From: Sporichthyaceae bacterium
GTDB taxonomy: Bacteria; Actinomycetota; Actinomycetes; JACCUZ01
Direction of reading: 5' to 3'
Length of the DNA stretch: 64,000 bases
NCBI GenBank assembly: GCA_031365725.1
Contig: JANLYQ010000060.1
Span: forward strand, 19,073-83,072
Shown: one piece after another, positions 36,651 to 47,596 of the stretch
Layout: every line of letters starts with the position of its first letter
Position numbering within the stretch: position 1 is the first letter of the stretch
Program-made: the position numbers and the translations under genes
The notes under the pieces: generated by a model
What the model saw: the letters and a program-made list of their open reading frames with translations, nothing else
Database searches by the model: none
Told to the model about the DNA's origin: nothing

Positions 36651-37058
36651 CGGCGGACGAGCCGGCCGGACGGTCGCGTCGGGCCCCTTCACGGGGACCC
36701 GCCGAGGAAAGTCCGGGCTCCACAGGGCGCGGTGGTGGGCAACACCCACCCGGGGTGACCCGCGGGACAGTGCCACAGAGAACAGACCGCCGACGCACAG
36801 CCTTCGGGCGGTACGTCGGTAAGGGTGAAACGGTGGTGCAAGAGACCACCAGCGCCCGAGGCGACTCGGGCGGCTAGGCAAACCCCACCCGGAGCAAGGT
36901 CAGACAGGGAGCGATCTGCGTGAGCAGGAGAGGGCGGCCCGCCCGAGCTCCCGGGTAGACCGCACGAGGCTGTCGGCAACGGCAGCCCTAGATGGATGAC
37001 CGTCCGCGCACCTTCGGGTGCGTGACAGAACCCGGCTTACAGGCCGACTCGTCCGCCG
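36651..37058 (+). ncRNA. rnpB: RNase P RNA, bacterial type A
   Basis: Universally conserved P4 strands GAGGAAAGTCCGGGCTCCACAGGGC and ACAGAACCCGGCTTA. The AGGGTGAAACGGTGGTGCAAGAGACCACC module is present. P1 pairing runs between 36651-36667 and 37042-37058. Confidence 0.88.
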
Positions 37059-37063
37059 CCTGT
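37031..37063 (+). repeat. left copy of a 33-bp direct repeat (CCCGGCTTACAGGCCGACTCGTCCGCCGCCTGT) covering the 3' end of rnpB (attL-like)
   Basis: An identical 33-mer recurs at 41168..41200. Confidence 0.85.
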
Positions 37064-37220
37064 GGCCGCTGACGTTCGCGACGCTCCGTACTAGGCCGCT
37101 GACCTGCGGAAACGCGGAATTGCAAAGTGACGGAGGTGGGTCGGCTGGATTGCGCATCGTCGCCGAAACAAGTCGAACAAGACACTGAAGGAGCCACCCA
37201 GATGCACCGATGGACCCCTC

Positions 37221-38483
37221 GTGCCTGCCAATCCGTTGCTGGAGAGCCTTAAAGGCGCCGTCGAGGCGGTACCGGAGGACATCCCGCTACGCCTGCACTA
37301 CGGCGAACTGCTGCTCAGCGAAGGGCTACGGGAGGAATCCGTCAGGCAGGCGGCATCCATCCTCCAGCGAGACCCGGCGCACCTTGGGGCGCTCACGCTG
37401 ATCGCGAACGCGTCATCAGTCCCGATGGAGACCGAGGGCGGCCAGGTCGGCGATTTCGCCCCTGATGCGGTCGCCGGTGGCGCGGGGACCGACCACTCGG
37501 TGGCGCAGACCGCGTCCGACCATGTGCTGCAGCGGCTCGACGCTGAGCTGAGCGGGATCGCGGCGCCGATGTACGTCGACTCGGGCCCGGACGACTCCTC
37601 CGCTGGGTTGTTCGACGTCGAGCAGGTCGGAGTTCGCCTCGCAGATGTCGGTGGCATGGTCGAGGTCAAGGCGCGGCTCGAGGCGGCCGTATTCGCTCCA
37701 TTGCGCCACCCGGAACTGGTCAAGCTGTACGGGAAGTCGCTACGCGGCGGCCTCCTGCTGTACGGCCCCCCGGGTTGCGGCAAGACCTTCATCGCACGTG
37801 CCGTCGCGGGCGAGATGAACGCGCACTTCATTGCCGTGTCGCTGGCCGACGTTCTGGACATGTACATCGGGCAGAGCGAGCGCAACATCCGGGACCTGTT
37901 CGAGACCGCTCGCGCAAACGCGCCCTGCGTGGTGTTCCTCGACGAGGTCGACGCCATCGGCCAGAAACGTAGCCAGATGCGCAACTCCGCAGCACGAGGC
38001 GCCGTGAATCAACTGCTGACCGAGATGGACGGCATCTCCGCGGCCAATGACGGTGTCTACATTCTCGGGGCCACCAACCATCCCTGGGACGTCGACGTCG
38101 CGTTGCGCCGGCCCGGGCGATTCGATCGCATGGTCCTCGTGCTGCCACCCGATGAGCCGGCGCGGGAAGCCATCTTGCGCTACCACCTGCGCGGCCGTCC
38201 CATTGCCGGCGTCGACCCAGCCAAGCTCGCCAAACACACGGACGGGTACTCCGGGGCCGACCTGGCCTACGTGTGCGAGGCGGCGGCCGAGCGAGCGCTG
38301 ATCGACTCCGCACGTTCCGGCAACGTACGCATGATGGGTCACGAAGATCTCGACGCCGCAGTCCGAGACGTCCACCCATCCATCGGGCCCTGGCTGGAGA
38401 CCGCGCGGAACGTCGCCGAGTTCGCGAACGCGGGCGGCACCTACGACGACCTGCTCACCTACTTGCGGCGCCGTCGCAGGTGA
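37221..38483 (+). CDS. classic-clade AAA+ ATPase (Vps4/CDC48-like) with a short N-terminal helical (MIT/TPR-like) region
   Basis: Walker A GPPGCGKT, Walker B VVFLDEVD, and second region of homology ATNHPWDVDVALRRPGRFDRMV. N-terminal roughly 60 aa helical, then an acidic linker. Confidence 0.8.
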   Translation: MPANPLLESLKGAVEAVPEDIPLRLHYGELLLSEGLREESVRQAASILQRDPAHLGALTLIANASSVPMETEGGQVGDFAPDAVAGGAGTDHSVAQTASDHVLQRLDAELSGIAAPMYVDSGPDDSSAGLFDVEQVGVRLADVGGMVEVKARLEAAVFAPLRHPELVKLYGKSLRGGLLLYGPPGCGKTFIARAVAGEMNAHFIAVSLADVLDMYIGQSERNIRDLFETARANAPCVVFLDEVDAIGQKRSQMRNSAARGAVNQLLTEMDGISAANDGVYILGATNHPWDVDVALRRPGRFDRMVLVLPPDEPAREAILRYHLRGRPIAGVDPAKLAKHTDGYSGADLAYVCEAAAERALIDSARSGNVRMMGHEDLDAAVRDVHPSIGPWLETARNVAEFANAGGTYDDLLTYLRRRRR

Positions 38484-39586
38484 CCGACACCCAACCTGGC
38501 GACCCAGCCGTCGCAACCACGCAGCTGCGGAAGGCGACGATCCTTCTAGACAGCAACCGGCCCCGCGAGGCTGCCGCTCTCGCCTCGCGGGCCATCGCCT
38601 CCGAGCCGTCCGATCCGCGCGGGTGGATCATGCTCGCCCGGTGCTACGAATCGCTGCAGGACCTCCCGCGAGCACTCGAGACAGCGAATCGGGCGATCGG
38701 CATCGACCCGAGCGACCCGGACCCCCACTTGGTTGCGAGCCGGGTTCTTCGCCTTCAGGGAAACACCCGCGAGGCTGTCCGGGCAGGGCAAGAAGCCGTA
38801 CACCTCGCGCCGATGAACGCCGTGGCACACGCCACCCTGGCTACGGCACTGGCATCACAGGGCGGCCAGGCAGCCCTGTTCGGTCTTGGCCTGCCGCGCG
38901 ACACGCGGGTCGCCGCCGAACACGCACGCCATGCGATGGCGCTGGCACCGACCAGCACAACAGGGCATTTCGCCGCCGGCTTCGTTGCTGCCGCATCGGG
39001 ACGCCCGCGTCAAGCCCGCGCGCACTATCGCCGAGTGCTCATCCTGAACCCGCAGAGCGCCCCGGCGATCAACAACCTCGCAGCACTCGACATGAGAAGT
39101 GGCCGACTCGTGCGCAGTGGCTCCGGGTTCGCCCGAGCCCTCGTTGCCGATCCACGGCTAAGCCTGGCGAGACGCAACGTGCGCGGCGCCGTACTCACAT
39201 GGCTCTGGCGATTCCACGTCCTGGCCTGGGTAATCTATGTCTGCTTCAGCGGCGTGATTGACAACGAGCCAGTCGTTCCCTTCACGCTGACCTGGAGCTC
39301 CCACGCCACGGTCGCCTGCTCGCTCGTCGGCATCTTCGCGGTCCTCGTAGCCGTCTCGTACTTGCGCATGGAGCCCAGCGTCCGCGCCTTCTTCAAGCGA
39401 TTGATAGCCGACAGCTGGAGCCTCAAGCTCGTCGCGCTGGCAGACCTAGCAACCATTGTGTGCTTCGTTGTCTCGACGCTCGGTCGGGGGCCGACCGCCA
39501 CCAATGTCAACCTCCTCGGCTTCTTGGCGATCGTGATATCCGTCGTTGGCCTCGCACGTTGCCGCTCTCGCCGTGAGCGCCCCTGA
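38480..39586 (+). CDS. TPR-repeat protein with a C-terminal 3-4 helix transmembrane anchor
   Basis: GTG at 38480 overlaps the AAA stop (GTGA). TPR-like helical repeats (ALETANRAIGIDPSDPDPHLVASRVLRLQGNTREAV...). Hydrophobic helices in the last 130 aa. Confidence 0.7.
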   Translation: MTDTQPGDPAVATTQLRKATILLDSNRPREAAALASRAIASEPSDPRGWIMLARCYESLQDLPRALETANRAIGIDPSDPDPHLVASRVLRLQGNTREAVRAGQEAVHLAPMNAVAHATLATALASQGGQAALFGLGLPRDTRVAAEHARHAMALAPTSTTGHFAAGFVAAASGRPRQARAHYRRVLILNPQSAPAINNLAALDMRSGRLVRSGSGFARALVADPRLSLARRNVRGAVLTWLWRFHVLAWVIYVCFSGVIDNEPVVPFTLTWSSHATVACSLVGIFAVLVAVSYLRMEPSVRAFFKRLIADSWSLKLVALADLATIVCFVVSTLGRGPTATNVNLLGFLAIVISVVGLARCRSRRERP

Positions 39587-39596
39587 ATACCGCTGA

Positions 39597-39740
39597 TGCA
39601 GGTCGGCGATCTACGCACACCTGTGGCCCGACTCGGAGGATCGCGCACGTGAGGCCGTCGACCGCGGTCTCGGCGCCAGGGGCGCCGACGCAAAGGCGAC
39701 CCAGATGCTTCGCGATATGGAGACGCTGCGCACCCGGTAG
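39597..39740 (+). pseudogene. C-terminal remnant of a tyrosine recombinase/integrase (catalytic-Tyr motif ...IYAHLWPDSEDRAREAVDRGL)
   Basis: Short open frame CRSAIYAHLWPDSEDRAREAVDRGLGARGADAKATQMLRDMETLRTR* with a stop 5 codons upstream. It matches the [TI]Y[AG]HL[FW]PD..D...A.D ending typical of actinobacterial integrases. Confidence 0.4.
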
Positions 39741-39786: not shown

Positions 39787-40458
39787 TCAATCCCCCCGGA
39801 GCTGTTTTCCCCACGCAGCAAAGAAGTCGCGCATGGCCTTGCGCTGGGTGTCCGGCAGCGGCAACTCGTCATCGGCGAAACGGCTCAGGGTTGCGAACAT
39901 CTCTGCCAGGACTGTTTGGTCGAAGCCGAGATCGAGCTCCGCCGCGCGCTCGAGCAGTGTCGCCTTCGTGAAGTGAGCAGAGAGGGCGTACACGTCGGCG
40001 AAGTCGCGGGCTTCTGCCCGGCCGAACAAGGCAATGAGCTTTCTGCCGGCGAGCTCCTCCAGGGAGAAGGTCGGTCCGGCGGAGCTCGTCACGTCCGGAT
40101 CGAGAGGCGGAGAGTCAAGGGCCAGGTCGACGAGCAGCTCTTCGGGGCCGCTCAGCACGAGGCGGCAGAACGTCTCTGTGTCTTGCAGGATGCGTACGGC
40201 CCAGCCACGGCTGATCGCAGCCGTCACGAGTGAGTCGCGGGCGGTGGCCACGTCTCCGCCGCCGCGTCGGGTGAAGAAGTCGAGGTCCTGGGTGGGCCGC
40301 TCGGTCAGGTGGTGGGCTGCCAGGGCGGCGCCCCCCGCGAGCAGGAAACCTGCGCTGGCGGGCAGGGAAAAGAAGATCCGCGCGACCTCGAGCTGAAATG
40401 CGGTGAGCGCAGTCGGCTCATCGGTTCGCTGGCCGTCCCCTGCGTCGTCGACCGTCAC
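39787..40458 (-). CDS. nucleotidyltransferase of the AbiEii/MntA-like (DUF1814) toxin family
   Basis: GGxAL motif (FLLAGGAALAAHHL) and DLDFF catalytic motif. GTG start overlaps the upstream XRE gene stop (TAGTG). Confidence 0.6.
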   Translation of the reverse strand: MTVDDAGDGQRTDEPTALTAFQLEVARIFFSLPASAGFLLAGGAALAAHHLTERPTQDLDFFTRRGGGDVATARDSLVTAAISRGWAVRILQDTETFCRLVLSGPEELLVDLALDSPPLDPDVTSSAGPTFSLEELAGRKLIALFGRAEARDFADVYALSAHFTKATLLERAAELDLGFDQTVLAEMFATLSRFADDELPLPDTQRKAMRDFFAAWGKQLRGD

Positions 40459-40979
40459 TAGTCCTCGACACCGTCGGTGGCCGCCGCGATCACTGGCGTC
40501 CAAGCCTCGCGAATCTCGCGGGGCAGAACTATCTCGGGCCACAGGTCGACGAGCAGCGCTCCGTCGACGTAGGCGGCGAGGTCGTCCGGGCCACCTTCAC
40601 GCAGCACGATCTCGTACGCGCGCGCCCGTTGCGCCCGATCGGCCAGCCGGAAGGTGCGTCGTGGCTCCGACCAGTTCAGGTGCAGGGGGAGCACGACGGT
40701 GGCCAGCGCCCTGTTGACAGGAAGACGACCGAGTCGCGAGGGAACCCAGATCGACCGGCCTCGGGTCATGAGCCGCTCGACGTAGTTGATCCGCGGGCTC
40801 GTGGTCAGCTCGAAGCCGGCCTCGCGAAGCAGCCGCTCGGCAGTGTCGAGCCCCGGTGATTTGCGTCCGTGCTCGTAGGCAGACAGCGTCGTCCGCGACG
40901 TACCGGCGCGCCGGGCGAGCTCGTCCTGGCTCAAGCCCGCACTGCGTCTCGCGTTCTTGATCAGGCCTGCGGCTGGCAT
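40458..40979 (-). CDS. XRE-family HTH transcriptional regulator (putative antitoxin) with a C-terminal extension
   Basis: Cro/C1-type HTH (LIKNARRSAGLSQDELARRAGTSRTTLSAYEHGRKSP). Coupled to the downstream nucleotidyltransferase. Confidence 0.7.
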   Translation of the reverse strand: MPAAGLIKNARRSAGLSQDELARRAGTSRTTLSAYEHGRKSPGLDTAERLLREAGFELTTSPRINYVERLMTRGRSIWVPSRLGRLPVNRALATVVLPLHLNWSEPRRTFRLADRAQRARAYEIVLREGGPDDLAAYVDGALLVDLWPEIVLPREIREAWTPVIAAATDGVED

Positions 40980-40994
40980 ACTTCTCTCCCCTAG

Positions 40995-41010
40995 ATGTAT
41001 CCGATAGGAT
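40995..41010. promoter_or_regulatory. inverted repeat GTATCC-N4-GGATAC 16 nt upstream of the XRE gene start (candidate autoregulatory operator)
   Basis: GTATCCGATAGGATAC is seen directly. Confidence 0.4.
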
Positions 41011-41167
41011 ACCCTACTGCGTCGTGGCGACACTGACGAGTTCGAGGTGTCGGCCGCCGCCGGAGCCGATCGTCATCGGGCACGCCTCTTTGCTGTGACG
41101 GCCCAAGGACGGCCCAGCCATTCTCCCCGAACCTAAAACCGGAGGTCAGCGGCCTAATTGGGCCATC

Positions 41168-41200
41168 ATGGACTGTTCCCGGCTTACAGGCCGACTCGTC
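41168..41200 (+). repeat. right copy of the 33-bp direct repeat of the rnpB 3' end (attR-like)
   Basis: Identical to 37031..37063. Flanks diverge immediately on both sides. Confidence 0.85.
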
Positions 41201-41269
41201 CGCCGCCTGTTGCCTGTGCTCGCCGGAATGCGCCAAGGTCCGAAACAGCGCCCCGACCTGCGGATCGGG

Positions 41270-42367
41270 TCAGGTGCAGCGGAACACCGCCCGCCCCTGG
41301 GCGGTGCTTGCCTGCTGGACAGCGAGAACGTCTCGCATGACATCGAGCACCTCGGCAAGCGGCAGCGGCGCCTTGGACACCCTGAGGTGGGGGTTGGTGA
41401 CTGCCACGGGATGCCACCAGGCGCCGTCCACCGTCAGGGTCGGCTCGGGTTCGACCGTGTCGATGGTGACCGGCACCCCTTCTACGGCAAAGCCTTCCTC
41501 GGCGACCGGCCGGACCAGGCGGTGCTCGGGCGGGATGCCGATGGCGTCGAGTGCGACGTGCAGGGCCTCGGCGTGGGCGACGTCAGCCGGGTGCAGCGTG
41601 GCCGCGACCCGGATCGAGAACCCGAGATCGCGGGCGAGCCGGATGCCGGCCATGGCTTTGGCGTGTGAGCCCGCTCCCCGCTGCCTGTCGTGCAGCTCGG
41701 GTCCGGCGGAGTCCAGGCTCACCTGAAGCGTGATCGCTGTGCGGTCGAGGGACTCCAGCGCAGCCCGCCGAGCGCCTTGATGGAACACCATCGCGTTGGT
41801 CAGCAGAGTTACCGGCACCTGGGCCGAGACCCGTGCGAGCAGCGGCGCGATGTCCGGATGCAGGAACGGCTCTCCGCCGGTGACCAGCAGTTCGCGCCCA
41901 CCCTGGGCGACGAACTCGCGGGTCGCGGTGACGGCCATCTCGACCGGCATCAAGCGAGCGGTCGCCTTCGGGGACGACGCAGCGCAGCAGTAGCCGCAGG
42001 AGAGGTTGCAGTGGAAGTTGGAGTACAACCACAGGCGGCTGCCCAGCGGCACGGCGGAGCCCTGGGTGAACGCGAGGGAGCCCCGCGGCGGGGCTGGTTT
42101 GCCGCGCCGGACGAGCAGTCGCCAGGGCCCGGAGCCGTCGCCGGCCACGTCGAGGAGGTCGTGACCCGCCAGCCGCGCCCAGGAGGGGAGATCCGCGAGC
42201 ACCGAGGGCTCCCGGGTGTGCAGCAGCAGGATCTCGCCGGGCGGGATGCGCCGGATCGCCGAGGTGATCGCGAGCAGCAACCCGCTACCGCAGTCCATGT
42301 CACCGCCGTCGAACTCGGCGGCCGGCGAGGCGAGGGCGCGGTCCTCGCCGCCGACGGTGGGACGCAC
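41270..42367 (-). CDS. fusion protein: N-terminal TusA-like sulfur-carrier domain + radical SAM domain (CxxxCxxC)
   Basis: N-terminus FDGGDMDCGSGLLLAI...PPGEILLL...DLPSWARLAGHDLL is a TusA-like fold. It is followed by CNLSCGYC and GGEPFLHPD radical SAM motifs. No SPASM/auxiliary cluster cysteines. Putative GTG start at 42367, 2 nt after the DsrE-like stop. Confidence 0.7.
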   Translation of the reverse strand: MRPTVGGEDRALASPAAEFDGGDMDCGSGLLLAITSAIRRIPPGEILLLHTREPSVLADLPSWARLAGHDLLDVAGDGSGPWRLLVRRGKPAPPRGSLAFTQGSAVPLGSRLWLYSNFHCNLSCGYCCAASSPKATARLMPVEMAVTATREFVAQGGRELLVTGGEPFLHPDIAPLLARVSAQVPVTLLTNAMVFHQGARRAALESLDRTAITLQVSLDSAGPELHDRQRGAGSHAKAMAGIRLARDLGFSIRVAATLHPADVAHAEALHVALDAIGIPPEHRLVRPVAEEGFAVEGVPVTIDTVEPEPTLTVDGAWWHPVAVTNPHLRVSKAPLPLAEVLDVMRDVLAVQQASTAQGRAVFRCT

Positions 42368-42369
42368 GG

Positions 42370-42729
42370 TCAGAACGACAACGATGCGGCGCCGTCGGCC
42401 AGCAGCGCAACCAGGGTGGCACCCCCTACGATCGTCGCCCCCTTGATCAGGTTGTCGGCACCGATGCCGCGCTTCTTGGCGCACGGGCTGCACACCAGGA
42501 AACTCCCGCCGGCGTCCACGAAGGACGAGACCAACTCGGCCATGGGCGCGAACCCGTCCTCGTGCAGCGTGTCGGCTATGCCCTGCTGCGCCAGCCGAGT
42601 GCCCTCGGACGAGAGGAAGACGGTGGTCGTCTGGTTCGAGGCTGCGGCTGCGCCCGCTACCACCATCGCGACACTGGTGCGGTCGGGGTCGTCGACGGAG
42701 TGGGTGAGGTTGATGACCAGGCCGTTCAT
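42370..42729 (-). CDS. DsrE/DsrF-like family protein
   Basis: MNGLVINLTHSVDDPDRTSVAMVVAGAAAA...FLVCSPCAKKRG. ATGA overlap with the upstream TusA-like gene. Confidence 0.65.
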   Translation of the reverse strand: MNGLVINLTHSVDDPDRTSVAMVVAGAAAASNQTTTVFLSSEGTRLAQQGIADTLHEDGFAPMAELVSSFVDAGGSFLVCSPCAKKRGIGADNLIKGATIVGGATLVALLADGAASLSF

Positions 42730-43067
42730 GGGCGGGTCTCCTTGCTGTGAGAGGTCGCTTCGGGCGGGGTGTTCAGCCGCCATGGGTCGGTGGCCTTCGT
42801 CAGGTGCGGGGAGGCGGTGGTCTGCACGTCGTAGTAGGGCCGCTCATCGGCTCCCAGTCCGCGCGCGAGATATCGGTGCCCCGTCAGGTGACACCAGGCT
42901 GGCAGGTCGAGGGGGGCGGCCGGGTCGGTGGCCACCAGCCGGATGACCGAGCCGGGAGGCAGCGGTCGCAGCCGCCGGGCCAGCACGAGCAGCAGCTCGC
43001 CGCACGCTTTGTCCCCACCGTCAACGATGACGATGGGCTCGTCATGGTCCCGGGCGGTGCTGGTCAC
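42726..43067 (-). CDS. TusA-like sulfurtransferase-family small protein
   Basis: IVIVDGGDKACGELLLVLARRL...GSVIRLVATDPAAPLDLPAWCHLTGHRYL. Paralogous to the N-terminal domain of the radical SAM fusion. GTGA overlap with the DoxX stop. Confidence 0.6.
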   Translation of the reverse strand: MTSTARDHDEPIVIVDGGDKACGELLLVLARRLRPLPPGSVIRLVATDPAAPLDLPAWCHLTGHRYLARGLGADERPYYDVQTTASPHLTKATDPWRLNTPPEATSHSKETRP

Positions 43068-44029
43068 GCGTGCAAGGTTTCTCGGGTGCTCGGCTGATGC
43101 CTGCTCGAGCCGAGCCGCCCGGCTGTGACGCTGCTGACCACCGCGGCGCAGAGGAAGAGCGCGGCGGAGGTGTTGGAGCCGCCGAGCCACACGTCGGTGC
43201 GGCTCAGCTGGGCGTACAGGGTGACGGCCGCAAGAGCAGCGACGACGGCGGCTCCCCACGCGAACTCGCGCCGCCTCAGCGCCGCCGCGAGCAGCATCAG
43301 GACCGCGACTGCACCGAGCACGAGGGCGCCGAGGAGGTTGTAGCTGCCCAGCGACACCGACAGCCCCGTGCCCTCGAGCGTGGTACCCCGAGACGCTAGG
43401 AAGTCCTCCCCGGCAGAGCGCGTGACCGCCCACAGCGCCGTCAGGGCCAGGACCGCTCCCCAGCCCCCCACCAGGCGTCGGGCCGTGTCCGCGCCGCGGC
43501 CGGCGATCGACGCGCCGCGCACCGCGTCCACAGCCGCGACGCTCCCCGCGGCGGTCAGCAGCAGCACCACGTGGATGCCGATGAGCATCCAGTAGGACCA
43601 CGGCCATTCGCCCGGGGTCCGGGCTACGGACAGCCCGATGGCGAGCGACTGCGCGACCCCAAGCAGTGCAGCGAGGCGAACCAACGTCCCGGTCAGGAGC
43701 AGCACTGCGAGCGCCGTCTCGGCGGCCAGCACGCCGTAGCCGAAGGGCGTGAAGTGGGGGAGCACGAGATGCTCCACCAGCCAGCTGTAGGGCGGGAACA
43801 CCGGATGGTCCACGGCGTCCTTCGTGAAGCGGTACAGCCCGCGATCAGCTGCCTTGCCGAAGTCTGGCGGACGCTTCCAGACCACGTTGAACAGCCACAG
43901 CGCTCCGACCAGGATGCGCAGGCCGGCGAGAGCGACGGCCCCTCCACGCGTGAGGGGGTCGACGGCCGGGCGCAGCAACCAGGAGACGGCGACCTTGAAA
44001 CTGCTGGACACCCTTGTCACGGTCGCCAT
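43064..44029 (-). CDS. DoxX-family membrane protein
   Basis: LRILVGALWLF...W.K DoxX signature and 4+ TM helices. 321 aa. Confidence 0.7.
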   Translation of the reverse strand: MATVTRVSSSFKVAVSWLLRPAVDPLTRGGAVALAGLRILVGALWLFNVVWKRPPDFGKAADRGLYRFTKDAVDHPVFPPYSWLVEHLVLPHFTPFGYGVLAAETALAVLLLTGTLVRLAALLGVAQSLAIGLSVARTPGEWPWSYWMLIGIHVVLLLTAAGSVAAVDAVRGASIAGRGADTARRLVGGWGAVLALTALWAVTRSAGEDFLASRGTTLEGTGLSVSLGSYNLLGALVLGAVAVLMLLAAALRRREFAWGAAVVAALAAVTLYAQLSRTDVWLGGSNTSAALFLCAAVVSSVTAGRLGSSRHQPSTRETLHA

Positions 44030-44598: not shown

Positions 44599-45930
44599 CT
44601 AACTGTCGGCGATGGCCAGGAGCCGACCGTCGGTGACGCCGACGATCAGCGCGCCGTCGGCAGTCAAGGCGGGATAGGAGTCGACGGTGGCGCCGGTGTC
44701 CAGCTGCCACAGCAGACGACCGGCCCGGTCGACGCCATAGATGAAACCCTGTCTCGTCCCGACGTACGTGCGATGGTCGACGTCGCTGAGCACTGCCGTC
44801 CAGATGCCGATGCTACGTCGCGACGGGCGACGTTGCGTTCCGGCGAAGCGGAAGATCAGTCGGCCGGTCACCGCATCGAGACCCGTGATCTGGTTGGCGT
44901 GGTCCCCGAAGTACACGACACCGTCCGCCGTCACTCCTGGCGAGGAGTACGTCCAATGACCGCGCCGGAACCGCCATCGCACCTGCCCGGTCGCGGGGTC
45001 CAGGCCGTACTCGTACGGATCGTTGGTCCCGATGACGACAGTCCCGTCCGGCGCGACAGCCGGGCTGACCTCGACGATCTCGGTGGGTGCTGTCGAGCGC
45101 CACAGCAGCGCACCGTGCCGTACGGCGACCACCCCGGAGAGCACGGACTGGTAGGTGGTCGACCCGTCGGCCGACAGGACTGGTGACCCGTAGGTCTGCT
45201 CGTGCAAGGCGACCTCCCACTGGACGGCCGGACCGGTGCCGGTCGGCTGCAGTCCGAGGAGGCGACCTGTCGCGTCCCCGACGACGACGTAGCCCGCCGC
45301 CGTCACCGCGGGCGAGGTGACCTGCCCGTCCAAGGGCAGCTGCCAGAGCAGCCGGCCCATGGGAGAGACCGCACGCAGTCGTTCACCCGGACCCGGCCAG
45401 AGCACGATGCCGTTCGGGAGGACGGCCGGGCTGGTGGAGAGATCCAGCCCGTAGCCGCCGCCACCGTCCAACGTCCATCGGTCCTTGCCGGTGCGGGGAT
45501 CGATGGCGTGCAGCACGCCGGCGTTGGTCGCTGCGTAGATCGTGCCGTCTGCCGCAACGACCGGCCCCGGTGTCACGTTGCCCTCGAGCCGGCGGGTCCA
45601 GCGGACCCGGCCGCTGACCGGCCCCTCGTGCTCGCTGCCGCCCGTGTGCTGTGCGTCGCGCAACGCTTGCGGCCACGCAGTCCACGACGCCGAAGCCGAC
45701 ACCGGATCGTGGCCGCGCAGGTGTCCCCCGAGGGCTATCGGCGGGGCAACAGGTGTCTCGCTCGACGATGGCCGAGTCTGCGTTGCCAAGCCCGGCGCGA
45801 CGACGCCGAGGAGCACGGCGCCAGCGAGCGCTGTTCCGGCGGAAAGGATCCATCGTTGGCGCACACACCCGAGTGTCGGCGCGATAGCCGGGCTGGGCGA
45901 GTTTCCCAAAGTTACGGATCTGTGACGCAT
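44599..45930 (-). CDS. PQQ-repeat beta-propeller protein, secreted or membrane-anchored
   Basis: Repeated GxxYxxxxxGxLxAxDxxTGxxxW propeller blades. ATG at 45930, then a signal/TM segment. Confidence 0.7.
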   Translation of the reverse strand: MRHRSVTLGNSPSPAIAPTLGCVRQRWILSAGTALAGAVLLGVVAPGLATQTRPSSSETPVAPPIALGGHLRGHDPVSASASWTAWPQALRDAQHTGGSEHEGPVSGRVRWTRRLEGNVTPGPVVAADGTIYAATNAGVLHAIDPRTGKDRWTLDGGGGYGLDLSTSPAVLPNGIVLWPGPGERLRAVSPMGRLLWQLPLDGQVTSPAVTAAGYVVVGDATGRLLGLQPTGTGPAVQWEVALHEQTYGSPVLSADGSTTYQSVLSGVVAVRHGALLWRSTAPTEIVEVSPAVAPDGTVVIGTNDPYEYGLDPATGQVRWRFRRGHWTYSSPGVTADGVVYFGDHANQITGLDAVTGRLIFRFAGTQRRPSRRSIGIWTAVLSDVDHRTYVGTRQGFIYGVDRAGRLLWQLDTGATVDSYPALTADGALIVGVTDGRLLAIADS

Positions 45931-46027
45931 GGTCACCAGGAGAGAACGGCTGCGCCGCCGCCGCCGCACTCCTAGGCTGGCTGGCGTCGACGGTCTGCCC
46001 CGGACCGGCCATGCTCGGAGGTCGCCA

Positions 46028-47596
46028 GTGTCCGCGTCCGTCGCCACTCACCCGTACGAAGCCACCCAGGCGGAGGTGATCGAGAAGGCGAAGCTGAAGA
46101 AGCATTTCGGCCGCTTCGACATCCTGTTCTTCCTGGTCTGCACGATTGTCGGTGTCGACACCATCGGCGCCGTCGCGTCCTACGGCGCCGAGGCCTTCAC
46201 CTGGTTGATCGTCCTCGCGGTGCTGTTCTTCATCCCCTCCGCGCTGCTCTTCGCCGAGCTGGGCACGGCGTTCCCGGAGGAAGGTGGCGCCTACATCTGG
46301 ACCCGCCTGGCCTTCGGTCGGCTGGCGGGCGCGGTCAACAACTTCCTCTACTGGGTGACCAACCCGGTCTGGCTGGGCGGCACGCTCGCCGTGCTGGCCG
46401 CCACCACGTTCGCGACGTTCTTCACCAGCAGCGACACCTTGAGCACACCGGCGTTCTACGCCTTCACCCTGGTCTTCGTCTGGGTGGGTGTGCTGTCCGC
46501 GATCCTGTCCTTCCGGGTCGGCAAGTGGATCCCCACGGTCGGTGCCTGGTCGCGCTTCGTGCTGCTCGGCTTCTTCACCTTCTCGGTCGTGGTCTACGCC
46601 GTGCAGCACGGAGTGCACGGCTTCGGGGCGTCAGACTTCGGGCCCACCTACTACGGGTTGGTCGGGCTGGTGCCGCTGCTGCTCTTCAACTTCGTCGGCT
46701 TCGAGCTGCCGAGCGCAGCCGGGGACGAGATGACCGACCCGCAGAAGGACGTGCCGTTCGCCATCTTCCGCAGCGCGATCCTCTCGATGCTGCTCTACGG
46801 CCTGCCAATCCTGGGCATCCTGCTCGTGCTGCCGACTTCGCAGATCACCGGCCTCGGCGGCTTCATCGACGCGATCAAGGCCGTGTTCACCGTCTATGGC
46901 GGAAGCGTCGGCAAGGGCGGCGCCGAGCTGACTGGAGCCGGAGCGTTCCTGGGTGGAATCGCCGCGATCCTGTTCATCCTCGCGCTGCTGTCCTCCGGCG
47001 TCACCTGGATCATGGGGTCGGACCGGTCTTTGGCCGTGTCCGGCTACGACGGTGCCGCGCCGAGGTACTTCGGTGTCATCTCCGAGAAGTACGGCACCCC
47101 CGTGCGAGTGAACGTCTTCAGCGGTGTGCTCGCGACCGCAGTCCTCGTCATGGCGCACGAGATCACCGGTGGCAGCGCCCAGAAGCTTTTCACCACGGTG
47201 CTCACGCTGGCCATCTCGACCACCCTGGTGAGCTATCTCGGCATCTTCCCGGCGCTGGTCGTGCTCCGGCGCAAGCTGCCCGCGGTGGACCGCCCCTACC
47301 GCGCGCCGTACGCCATGGGCCTCTCGATCCTGCTCACCCTGCTCATCCTCTTCAGTGTCGTGCAGATCTTCTTCCCCGGTGCCGGCGATCACTGGTTCGG
47401 CGCCGACTACCGGCCTTCCGAGTGGAAGGCGAGCGAGAAGTGGTCCTACCTGGCCACCGAGATGGTGCCGCTGCTGGTGTTCATCGCGATGGGCGTCGTG
47501 TTCTGGGCGTCCGGTCGCAGCACCCGCGAGGCGCTGGCCGAGGGCGTCGGCACGAGCCCGATCGACGCCGTGCCCGGGGTCAGCTCGGCTGACTGA
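46028..47596 (+). CDS. APC-family amino acid permease
   Basis: 12-TM APC transporter sequence. GTG at 46028 has a GGAGG RBS 6 nt upstream. Confidence 0.85.
   Translation: MSASVATHPYEATQAEVIEKAKLKKHFGRFDILFFLVCTIVGVDTIGAVASYGAEAFTWLIVLAVLFFIPSALLFAELGTAFPEEGGAYIWTRLAFGRLAGAVNNFLYWVTNPVWLGGTLAVLAATTFATFFTSSDTLSTPAFYAFTLVFVWVGVLSAILSFRVGKWIPTVGAWSRFVLLGFFTFSVVVYAVQHGVHGFGASDFGPTYYGLVGLVPLLLFNFVGFELPSAAGDEMTDPQKDVPFAIFRSAILSMLLYGLPILGILLVLPTSQITGLGGFIDAIKAVFTVYGGSVGKGGAELTGAGAFLGGIAAILFILALLSSGVTWIMGSDRSLAVSGYDGAAPRYFGVISEKYGTPVRVNVFSGVLATAVLVMAHEITGGSAQKLFTTVLTLAISTTLVSYLGIFPALVVLRRKLPAVDRPYRAPYAMGLSILLTLLILFSVVQIFFPGAGDHWFGADYRPSEWKASEKWSYLATEMVPLLVFIAMGVVFWASGRSTREALAEGVGTSPIDAVPGVSSAD

Follow-up and report, generated by a model that had tools for sequence, protein, structure and literature searches.

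A candidate AAA+ unfoldase and its predicted TPR membrane partner form a conserved two-gene module, carried in one actinobacterium on a degraded islet at rnpB

Adjacent genes for a 'VPS4-like AAA+' protein and a tetratricopeptide repeat (TPR) protein with six transmembrane (TM) helices, TPR/6TM, have been listed from five phyla, with Oter_1429 (ACB74714.1) of Opitutus terrae as the example (mSystems 2024, PMC11237479). That paper states 'membrane-proximal complex' for the AAA plus TPR-TM architecture and suggests that the bacterial Vps4 homologue was acquired from archaea; it gives the pair neither a name nor experimental work, and Actinomycetota are not among its listed phyla. The other literature searched contained no name or function for such a pair. 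Here we analyse a pair of this kind in 64,000 nucleotides of contig JANLYQ010000060.1 from Sporichthyaceae bacterium (the whole stretch is referred to as the window, and positions are those of the window). A gene for an AAA+ ATPase (37221–38483, + strand, GTG start, 420 aa) is followed by a gene for a TPR membrane protein (38480–39586, + strand, GTG start, 368 aa), both read from their translations, and both start codons are consistent with the N-termini of homologues. The GTG of the partner gene lies on the TGA of the ATPase gene in a GTGA overlap (38480–38483, +), a sequence arrangement indicating translational coupling of the two genes. We would give about an even chance to the view that their products are an AAA+ unfoldase recruited to the membrane and the adaptor for it.

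The ATPase carries GPPGCGKT, FLDEVD and ATNHPWDVDVALRRPGRFD in the translation of 37221–38483, and it matches the Pfam families AAA (PF00004) at 4e-44 and AAA_lid_3 at 1.7e-09. The features by which classic-clade AAA+ proteins are recognized (Walker A and B, a sensor-1 asparagine, an alpha-helical lid, two arginine fingers within a second region of homology, and the lack of a sensor-2 arginine) are legible in the sequence and invariant in the family, and the protein is accordingly predicted to be a single-ring, classic-clade AAA+ ATPase. An AlphaFold2 model made from 28 family sequences places an N-terminal TPR domain, also matched by TPR profiles, at residues 4–64 (37230–37412, +), with helices at residues 5–16, 21–33, 37–50 and 55–64 and a predicted local distance difference test score (pLDDT) of about 95. 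The linker that follows (residues 65–130, +) is modelled as disordered, with pLDDT below 50 at residues 68–94 and 113–128, and holds a helix (residues 94–110; 37500–37550, +) that is conserved in family alignments with the consensus 'LRRLDAEL'. The AAA core and lid, delimited by Pfam and the model, span residues 131–366 (37611–38318, +), and three family-specific helices (residues 374–417, +) end the protein.

Within the core, family alignments locate Walker A, GPPGCGKT, at residues 182–189 (37764–37787, +); among 39 family members from several phyla, G182 to K188 are invariant and T189 nearly so. Pore loop 1, D-M-Y-I-G (residues 213–217; 37857–37871, +), is an aromatic-hydrophobic-Gly loop of the substrate-threading type. 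In 28 close relatives D213, M214 and G217 are invariant and residue 215 is aromatic, and the cross-phylum consensus is DMWIG. Walker B, VVFLDEVD, with D241 and E242, occupies residues 237–244 (37929–37952, +) in the translation and the family alignments. Sensor-1 and the second region of homology, GATNHPWDVDVALRRPGRFD, lie at residues 283–302 (38067–38126, +) and include N286 and the arginine fingers R297 and R300; T285, P288, W289, D292, R297 and R300 are invariant across phyla. With Walker A and B, pore loop 1, N286, R297 and R300 invariant or nearly so family-wide, the catalytic and substrate-threading residues all appear intact, and the ATPase is predicted to be a threading AAA+ motor. Its C-terminal extension, PSIGPWLETARNVAEFANAGGTYDDLLTYLRRRRR (38376–38480, +), is a family signature in which W391, N397, G406 and Y408 are invariant across phyla. 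A PDB sequence search with the C-terminal 47 residues found no similar chain.

By sequence and model, the described proteins closest to the ATPase appear to be Cdc48/p97, through its D2 domain, and FtsH. The nearest solved relatives were Cdc48/p97 D2 domains (phmmer E 1e-114; Foldseek E 1e-23, 37–42% identity). NCBIfam models gave 225.7 bits for FtsH, 225.4 for CDC48, 212.9 for PAN, 165.5 for CdvC, 130.6 for Mpa and 128.8 for IteA; no NCBIfam cut-off was reached, and the scores lay far below all of them. The pore loop and the second region of homology are the same as in Cdc48/p97/VAT. These proteins, however, have two AAA domains and a double-psi-barrel N-domain, whereas the window ATPase has one AAA domain and no barrel, ends in another kind of C-terminal extension and comes with a membrane partner gene of its own, and the CDC48 model (TIGR01243, cut-off 802 bits) matched through D2 only. 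In its AAA module FtsH is roughly as close to the window ATPase as Cdc48 is, and FtsH acts at the cytoplasmic face of the membrane, as the window system would in the reading proposed here. In contrast to FtsH, the window ATPase has neither an M41 protease domain nor membrane helices of its own, and only the AAA part of the FtsH profile aligned (positions 147–401 of 598; cut-off 600 bits).

The initial annotation had described a 420-aa classic-clade ATPase with the motifs given above, a TPR protein with a membrane anchor of three to four helices and a GTGA overlap between their genes, and each of these was recovered, in the sequence, in the Pfam matches or in the AlphaFold2 models. Its labels 'Vps4/CDC48-like' and, for the N-terminus, 'MIT/TPR-like' proved half right, CDC48 and TPR being borne out and Vps4 and MIT not. 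The layout of a single AAA ring, a small helical N-terminal domain and a linker is shared with Vps4/CdvC. TPR_19, on the other hand, matched the N-domain in 35 of the 39 family members (best E 1e-17). In the window ATPase itself Pfam gave TPR_20 at 0.023 and TPR_19 at 0.1, and a PDB sequence search with its N-terminal 67 residues matched the solved TPR proteins TTC0263 and YrrB. There was no MIT domain among the Pfam matches listed at E<=1 and no Vps4_C among the Pfam matches listed. The CdvC equivalog (NF041006) has a cut-off of 650 bits, against the 165.5 obtained, and Foldseek placed p97 D2 first. On the Pfam and NCBIfam scores, the Foldseek result and the PDB searches with the N- and C-terminal pieces, a Vps4/MIT identity was rejected. 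ESCRT-III, Snf7 and PspA genes were absent from the window and from every annotated related locus examined, so that the window pair also differs from Vps4/CdvC in having no ESCRT-III or PspA neighbour.

Two further systems resemble the pair in outline. IetAS, reportedly an anti-phage system (Gao, 2020), likewise consists of two genes, one of them for a classic AAA ATPase, and the PADLOC IetA models matched the AAA core at 1.6e-36. IetA is paired with a serine protease, the window ATPase with a TPR membrane protein; the IetA match ran through the generic AAA core only, and the IteA cut-off is 510 bits. EccA of type VII secretion joins a TPR domain to a CbbX-type AAA domain and is linked to ESX genes. 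The window pair is not so linked, no ESX genes being found near it in the window, and it gave 42.6 bits with the EccA model (TIGR03922) against a cut-off of 466. In the 'FtsH ternary systems' (PMC7159879) MoxR and vWA proteins accompany a two-domain FtsH, and these systems were therefore set aside as different.

The partner protein matched many TPR families in Pfam (for example, TPR_2 at 2e-18). Its AlphaFold2 model, with a mean pLDDT of 85.2, consists of a TPR solenoid of six repeats and twelve helices (residues 9–223; 38504–39148, +), a four-helix membrane domain (residues 228–363; 39161–39568, +) and, after it, a basic C-terminal tail. The long hydrophobic helices are modelled at residues 228–256, 274–295, 313–334 and 338–363, with a short helix at 299–311. 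Five Lys/Arg residues precede the first membrane helix, four lie in the loop after the second and four are C-terminal, while the other loops have none and one. Because of this distribution, both termini and the TPR solenoid would be placed in the cytoplasm, and we predict that the partner is an inner-membrane protein of N-in/C-in topology whose solenoid shares the cytoplasm with the ATPase. The TPR domain resembled models of PilW, PilF, type III secretion system (T3SS) chaperones and MamA at low scores, and no PADLOC model matched the partner. Across phyla, mean column identity was 40% for the ATPase and 19% for the partner, which diverges about twice as fast, and between clades the membrane domains are barely alignable past their first helix and its junction with the TPR domain. 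Since the ATPase is far better conserved and the membrane domain of the partner poorly so, an anchor or adaptor fits better than an enzyme or a channel.

The spread of the pair was examined by scanning one genome per species with the patterns YGPPGCGK and ATNHPWD[VI], of which ATNHPWD is specific enough for such use. The scan gave 80 loci, from Actinomycetota, Planctomycetota, Verrucomicrobiota, Bacteroidota, Cyanobacteria, Acidobacteriota, Myxococcota, Proteobacteria and Bacillota (L-numbers below label related loci, and P-numbers related proteins). The co-occurrence set of 83 loci was made up of the scan loci, three further loci and the window. An adjacent TPR open reading frame (ORF) on the same strand was present in 70 of the 83, with membrane segments in 69 of these 70; the spacing between ATPase and partner was -4 bp in 33 of them and -1 in 6. 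TPR domains were found in 44 of the 49 partners scanned with Pfam. By this evidence the two genes are probably co-transcribed and have been inherited together across at least eight phyla. In L064, L070 and L075 the order is reversed, with the TPR-TM gene upstream of the ATPase gene. There is also a proteobacterial three-gene variant (L074, 1212–3853; L076, 9527–12272; L081, 9503–12233), in which the ATPase is followed by a four-helix membrane protein (136–158 aa, no Pfam match) and then by a TPR protein of about 310 aa with two C-terminal membrane helices. The association therefore outlasts both reversal of the gene order and splitting of the partner. No third conserved gene emerged from an all-against-all BLAST of flanking ORFs at about 80 loci; a nine-locus cluster that had been a candidate consisted of additional TPR-TM genes.

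When 5.8 billion proteins were searched, the ATPase had thousands of matches. The best 120 were almost all full-length, about 400 aa long and 61–88% identical, and were annotated merely as 'SpoVK/Ycf46/Vps4 family AAA+'. Names given by the Prokaryotic Genome Annotation Pipeline (PGAP) were as generic: 'ATP-binding protein' or 'AAA family ATPase' for the one protein and 'tetratricopeptide repeat protein' for the other. The last 111 aa of the ATPase retrieved 329 clusters (50% identity) at E<=1e-10 among 1.84 billion representatives, and the family thus appears widespread and moderate in size. One member, in L045 (9920–11823), has a degenerate pore loop ('DPSEAVALSD') and Walker B ('FFEDID'), and the next gene codes for a 178-aa four-helix membrane protein without TPR; this family member may be an inactivated derivative.

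The window pair shares with that of PMC11237479 its gene order and domain logic, that is, a helical N-domain and a single classic AAA domain, then TPRs with C-terminal membrane helices. The scan also found the pair in phyla named there, in Verrucomicrobiota (L044, a metagenome-assembled genome of Opitutaceae), Planctomycetota, Bacteroidota and Cyanobacteria. The Opitutaceae locus, L044, which has the pair, aligns at 44% identity. Full-length alignment of the window ATPase with family ATPases of other phyla gives 37–44% identity, with common N- and C-terminal signatures. Both genes of the published pair are present in the window, as in 70 of the 83 related loci, whereas the six membrane helices are not, the model of the window partner having four. 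The AAA plus TPR-TM pair is not categorically new, because its architecture is already in print (PMC11237479). To that extent the earlier impression of an unrecognised architecture has to be withdrawn, and it stands insofar as the architecture has no name and no family-level annotation. The companion claim of an uncharacterised, conserved two-gene module is upheld by co-occurrence far beyond the window genome. Since the contexts vary and the genes co-occur elsewhere, the pair is neither a fixed housekeeping locus nor an association private to one genome, either of which would have spoken against a module.

Two main clades can be told apart. The ATPases of the non-actinobacterial clade have about three N-terminal TPR repeats, whereas the actinobacterial ones have about two hairpins and a disordered linker. 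In the non-actinobacterial partner five or six helices make up a membrane domain of about 235 aa, compared to four helices in about 140 aa in the window partner. When the membrane-domain profiles of the two clades were compared, similarity extended over 59 junction columns only (hhalign probability 92.7%). Most actinobacterial partners are 414–426 aa long with five or six hydrophobic segments; that of the window belongs to a smaller four-helix type of 365–368 aa with 14 close homologues only. The closest available relative, L096, has the ATPase gene followed, with a 4-bp overlap, by that of a 365-aa partner, the proteins being 76% and 72% identical to those of the window; this pair adjoins a GGDEF-EAL gene, not rnpB. 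Judged by sequence and model, the window pair is probably a reduced actinobacterial variant, with a short N-terminal TPR domain and four membrane helices, and as such it would extend the known range of the pair into Actinomycetota. Two tandem TPR-TM genes of different types follow the ATPase gene in L092 (10001–13540), L093 (438–3978) and L038 (9947–14438), and the second such gene of L092 (356 aa) is an orthologue of the window partner at 58% identity.

The pair lies in an islet bounded on the left by rnpB, the gene for a class A RNase P RNA (36658–37055, +; Rfam RF00010, 280.6 bits, full model 1–367). A repeat search found a 44-nt direct repeat, 91% identical between its copies, of which the left, attL-like copy (37024–37067) overlaps the 3' end of rnpB and the right, attR-like copy lies at 41171–41214; binomially estimated, such a repeat has a chance expectation of about 1e-9 in 4.9 kb. 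Because the repeat duplicates the rnpB 3' end, rnpB would be the attachment site of an element. The usual targets of such elements are tRNA and tmRNA genes, and the RNase P RNA gene is less familiar. Between the pair and the next gene, starting 11 nt past the partner stop codon, the translation contains a tyrosine-recombinase C-terminal remnant of 47 codons, 'CRSAIYAHLWPDSEDRAREAVDRGLGAR...' ('SAIYAHLWPD...'; 39597–39740, +). Its alignment with the integrase encoded after the pair in L003 was weak (E 0.22) and fell on the catalytic-Tyr region of that protein. Since only these last 47 codons of the integrase remain, the element would now be immobile. Two islet neighbours lie outside the pair, a gene for an AbiEii-family nucleotidyltransferase toxin (39787–40542, -; PF08843, 1.9e-14) and an Xre-type helix-turn-helix (HTH) gene (40458–41033, -; HTH_3, 1.7e-13), a presumed antitoxin or regulator. 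The toxin ORF overlaps the HTH ORF, which lies upstream of it, by about 85 nt, and the usual AbiEi-type antitoxin is not the mate. The window has about 70% G+C, with a fraction of 0.64–0.68 between the repeats against 0.70–0.73 outside them. G+C at third codon positions (GC3) is 0.77–0.83 in the four islet genes against 0.874 +/- 0.025 in the other window genes. A scan of the islet for promoters and terminators gave nothing above shuffled expectation.

Direct repeats at a 3' end, a tyrosine recombinase, present only as a remnant, and atypical composition together point to a 4.15-kb degraded integrative element inserted at the 3' end of rnpB, with the pair as its cargo. The initial annotation had put the pair in an rnpB islet beside an AbiEii pair and an integrase remnant; all of these were located, and the 44-nt repeat adds support. 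In our reconstruction, the pair would have arrived as cargo of a small element targeting the rnpB 3' end, which would then have lost most of its integrase. In L003 genes for an excisionase-like HTH_17 protein and an entire integrase come after the pair and are oriented like it, with a TrwC relaxase nearby, and from this arrangement we infer that the pair travels as cargo of integrative elements. The pair also occurs on Streptomyces linear plasmids. The module is accessory and mobile, not universal.

We favor a mechanism in which the TPR solenoid of the partner would dock the ATPase hexamer on the membrane from the cytoplasmic side, and recruitment of an unfoldase by a TPR adaptor tethered in the membrane, as the initial annotation had proposed, is the best mechanistic reading of these sequences. 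Candidate contacts are the N-terminal TPR domain, the conserved linker helix or the conserved C-terminal tail of the ATPase. ATP-driven threading through the pore would then unfold, extract or disassemble one or more membrane-proximal client proteins. The mode of working would resemble that of the FtsH AAA module, of Cdc48 with membrane adaptors or of Msp1, with the anchor provided in trans and no protease attached. The role may be either quality control of envelope proteins and stress tolerance or a conflict function. Several observations sit less well with an unfoldase and a mere adaptor. The partner membrane domain of the non-actinobacterial clade has conserved polar motifs (W..P..N.LLR.D..GR), which suggests more than a passive anchor. 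Fast evolution of the partner, its duplication (L092, L038), the mobile contexts and a fusion to Trypsin-STAND proteins are more conflict-like, and no protease or chaperone was consistently linked to the pair across the loci examined.

The conflict-like traits lead to a possible but doubtful alternative, that the pair is an anti-phage or conflict system, perhaps of the abortive-infection kind, in which the fast-evolving cytoplasmic TPR domain of the partner would sense a protein of the invader, the membrane domain would be the effector, acting through perturbation of the membrane, and the ATPase would arm, activate or reset it. Consistent with this, the horizontally acquired islet in the window also holds the AbiEii/Xre genes; an Mrr-type restriction gene, Fic/ribbon-helix-helix (RHH) genes and a nucleotidyltransferase/HTH gene lie near the pair in L089; the L003 locus represents an integrative conjugative element; and L088 contains IS66 along with numerous small hypothetical genes. 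The roughly two-fold faster evolution and occasional duplication of the partner, the patchy distribution and the moderate family size (329 clusters) also fit, as do cases in Streptomyces (L037, L039, P0240, P0298 and P0299) in which a family ATPase is fused at the C-terminus of an Avs-like protein composed of Trypsin_2, a STAND nucleoside triphosphatase (NTPase) and TPRs. Against a defence role, a descriptive tally of the 14 actinobacterial contexts with annotation places about nine in ordinary or core chromosome (L001, L005, L086, L087, L091, L092, L094, L095 and L096), while about five are mobile or rich in toxin-antitoxin genes. The pair lies between pyk/ppdK and polA/rpsA/coaE/uvrB in L095 and near dnaK-grpE-dnaJ in L087, and the synteny around it is common to four Streptomyces species. 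The argument from an anti-phage context, with which the pair was first presented, is therefore weak family-wide. The AAA fusion, moreover, is rare in the very large Trypsin-STAND-TPR family of Actinomycetota, most of whose members have no AAA module, and the window ATPase has no STAND or protease part. PADLOC gave only generic IetA and TRIP13 matches for the ATPase and none for the partner, and no paper in the literature searched names the pair as a defence system; on these grounds identity with a known defence system was rejected. No full-length family member turned up in 50,697 phage records or 2.9 million viral contigs (IMG/VR), and the best viral match (L097) has neither the C-terminal signature nor a TPR neighbour. 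This absence rules out a phage-borne origin and says little about defence. The broader claim that the pair represents a widespread, unrecognised class of membrane conflict or immune system, with a TPR sensor in a membrane effector, a Cdc48-like unfoldase to drive or reset it and Avs-like wiring in some Streptomyces, we regard as unlikely.

Three other explanations were weighed. Serving as a chaperone in envelope biogenesis or secretion, EccA-like or PilF/PilW-like, for a machine encoded elsewhere would agree with the low-score likeness of the TPR domain to PilW, PilF, T3SS chaperones and MamA, and EccA-type proteins likewise join TPR and AAA domains. We nevertheless consider it quite improbable, given 42.6 bits with the EccA model against 466, no secretion or pilus genes linked to the pair in any locus examined, and movement of the pair as a self-contained unit on mobile elements. 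A bacterial ESCRT-like membrane remodelling system, in which a Vps4 homologue of archaeal descent would act on the TPR-TM protein in the place of ESCRT-III, an idea put forward in PMC11237479, draws on the Vps4-type layout of a single AAA ring, a small helical N-domain and a flexible linker. We judge it very improbable: the N-domain is TPR, not MIT, in 35 of the 39 members and in the PDB matches, Vps4_C is not among the matches listed, CdvC scores (165.5 bits) below FtsH, CDC48 and PAN, the top Foldseek hit is p97 D2, and no locus examined has a PspA, Snf7 or ESCRT-III gene. That the two genes are a decaying passenger pair, functionless in this genome, is scarcely credible. The carrier element is indeed degraded, with the integrase remnant alone remaining, but both ORFs are full length compared to their homologues, the catalytic residues are intact, the GTGA junction is kept and the bias among codon positions is gene-like (GC3 0.83 for the ATPase gene and 0.77 for the partner gene).

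A conserved predicted unfoldase with a dedicated membrane TPR partner occurs across many phyla without a name, a family model or an experiment. If the membrane-recruited unfoldase does extract membrane proteins, the pair would give bacteria an equivalent of Cdc48/Msp1-type dislocases without the protease of FtsH; if it serves defence, bacterial immunity would gain a membrane mechanism powered by an unfoldase. The actinobacterial form, compact with its four membrane helices and carried on a small mobile islet, offers a handy entry point, with two genes in about 2.4 kb and obvious point mutants.

A few observations concern the surroundings of the pair and of its relatives. The Streptomyces fusion proteins are 1368–1487 aa long and of the nSTAND_NTPase5 type (L037, 6755–11215; L039, 6500–10900). 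In L037 and L039 the fused ATPase keeps the N-terminal TPR domain and the C-terminal signature, and a TPR-7TM gene lies downstream. Regulators with an ANTAR domain (GAF-ANTAR or receiver-ANTAR) are encoded close to the pair, no more than a few genes away, in L086, L092 and L095 (three of the 14 annotated loci), which may be coincidence. Just past the right repeat, the window codes for a radical-SAM protein with a TusA-like domain and for a second TusA-like ORF (41270–43607, -), neither of them related to the pair. Genes for PQQ_2/BamB-like beta-propeller proteins lie directly downstream of the pair in L005 (10381–13815), and in the window a PQQ_2/BamB-like gene is found at 44599–46047 (-), about 5 kb from the pair and outside the islet.

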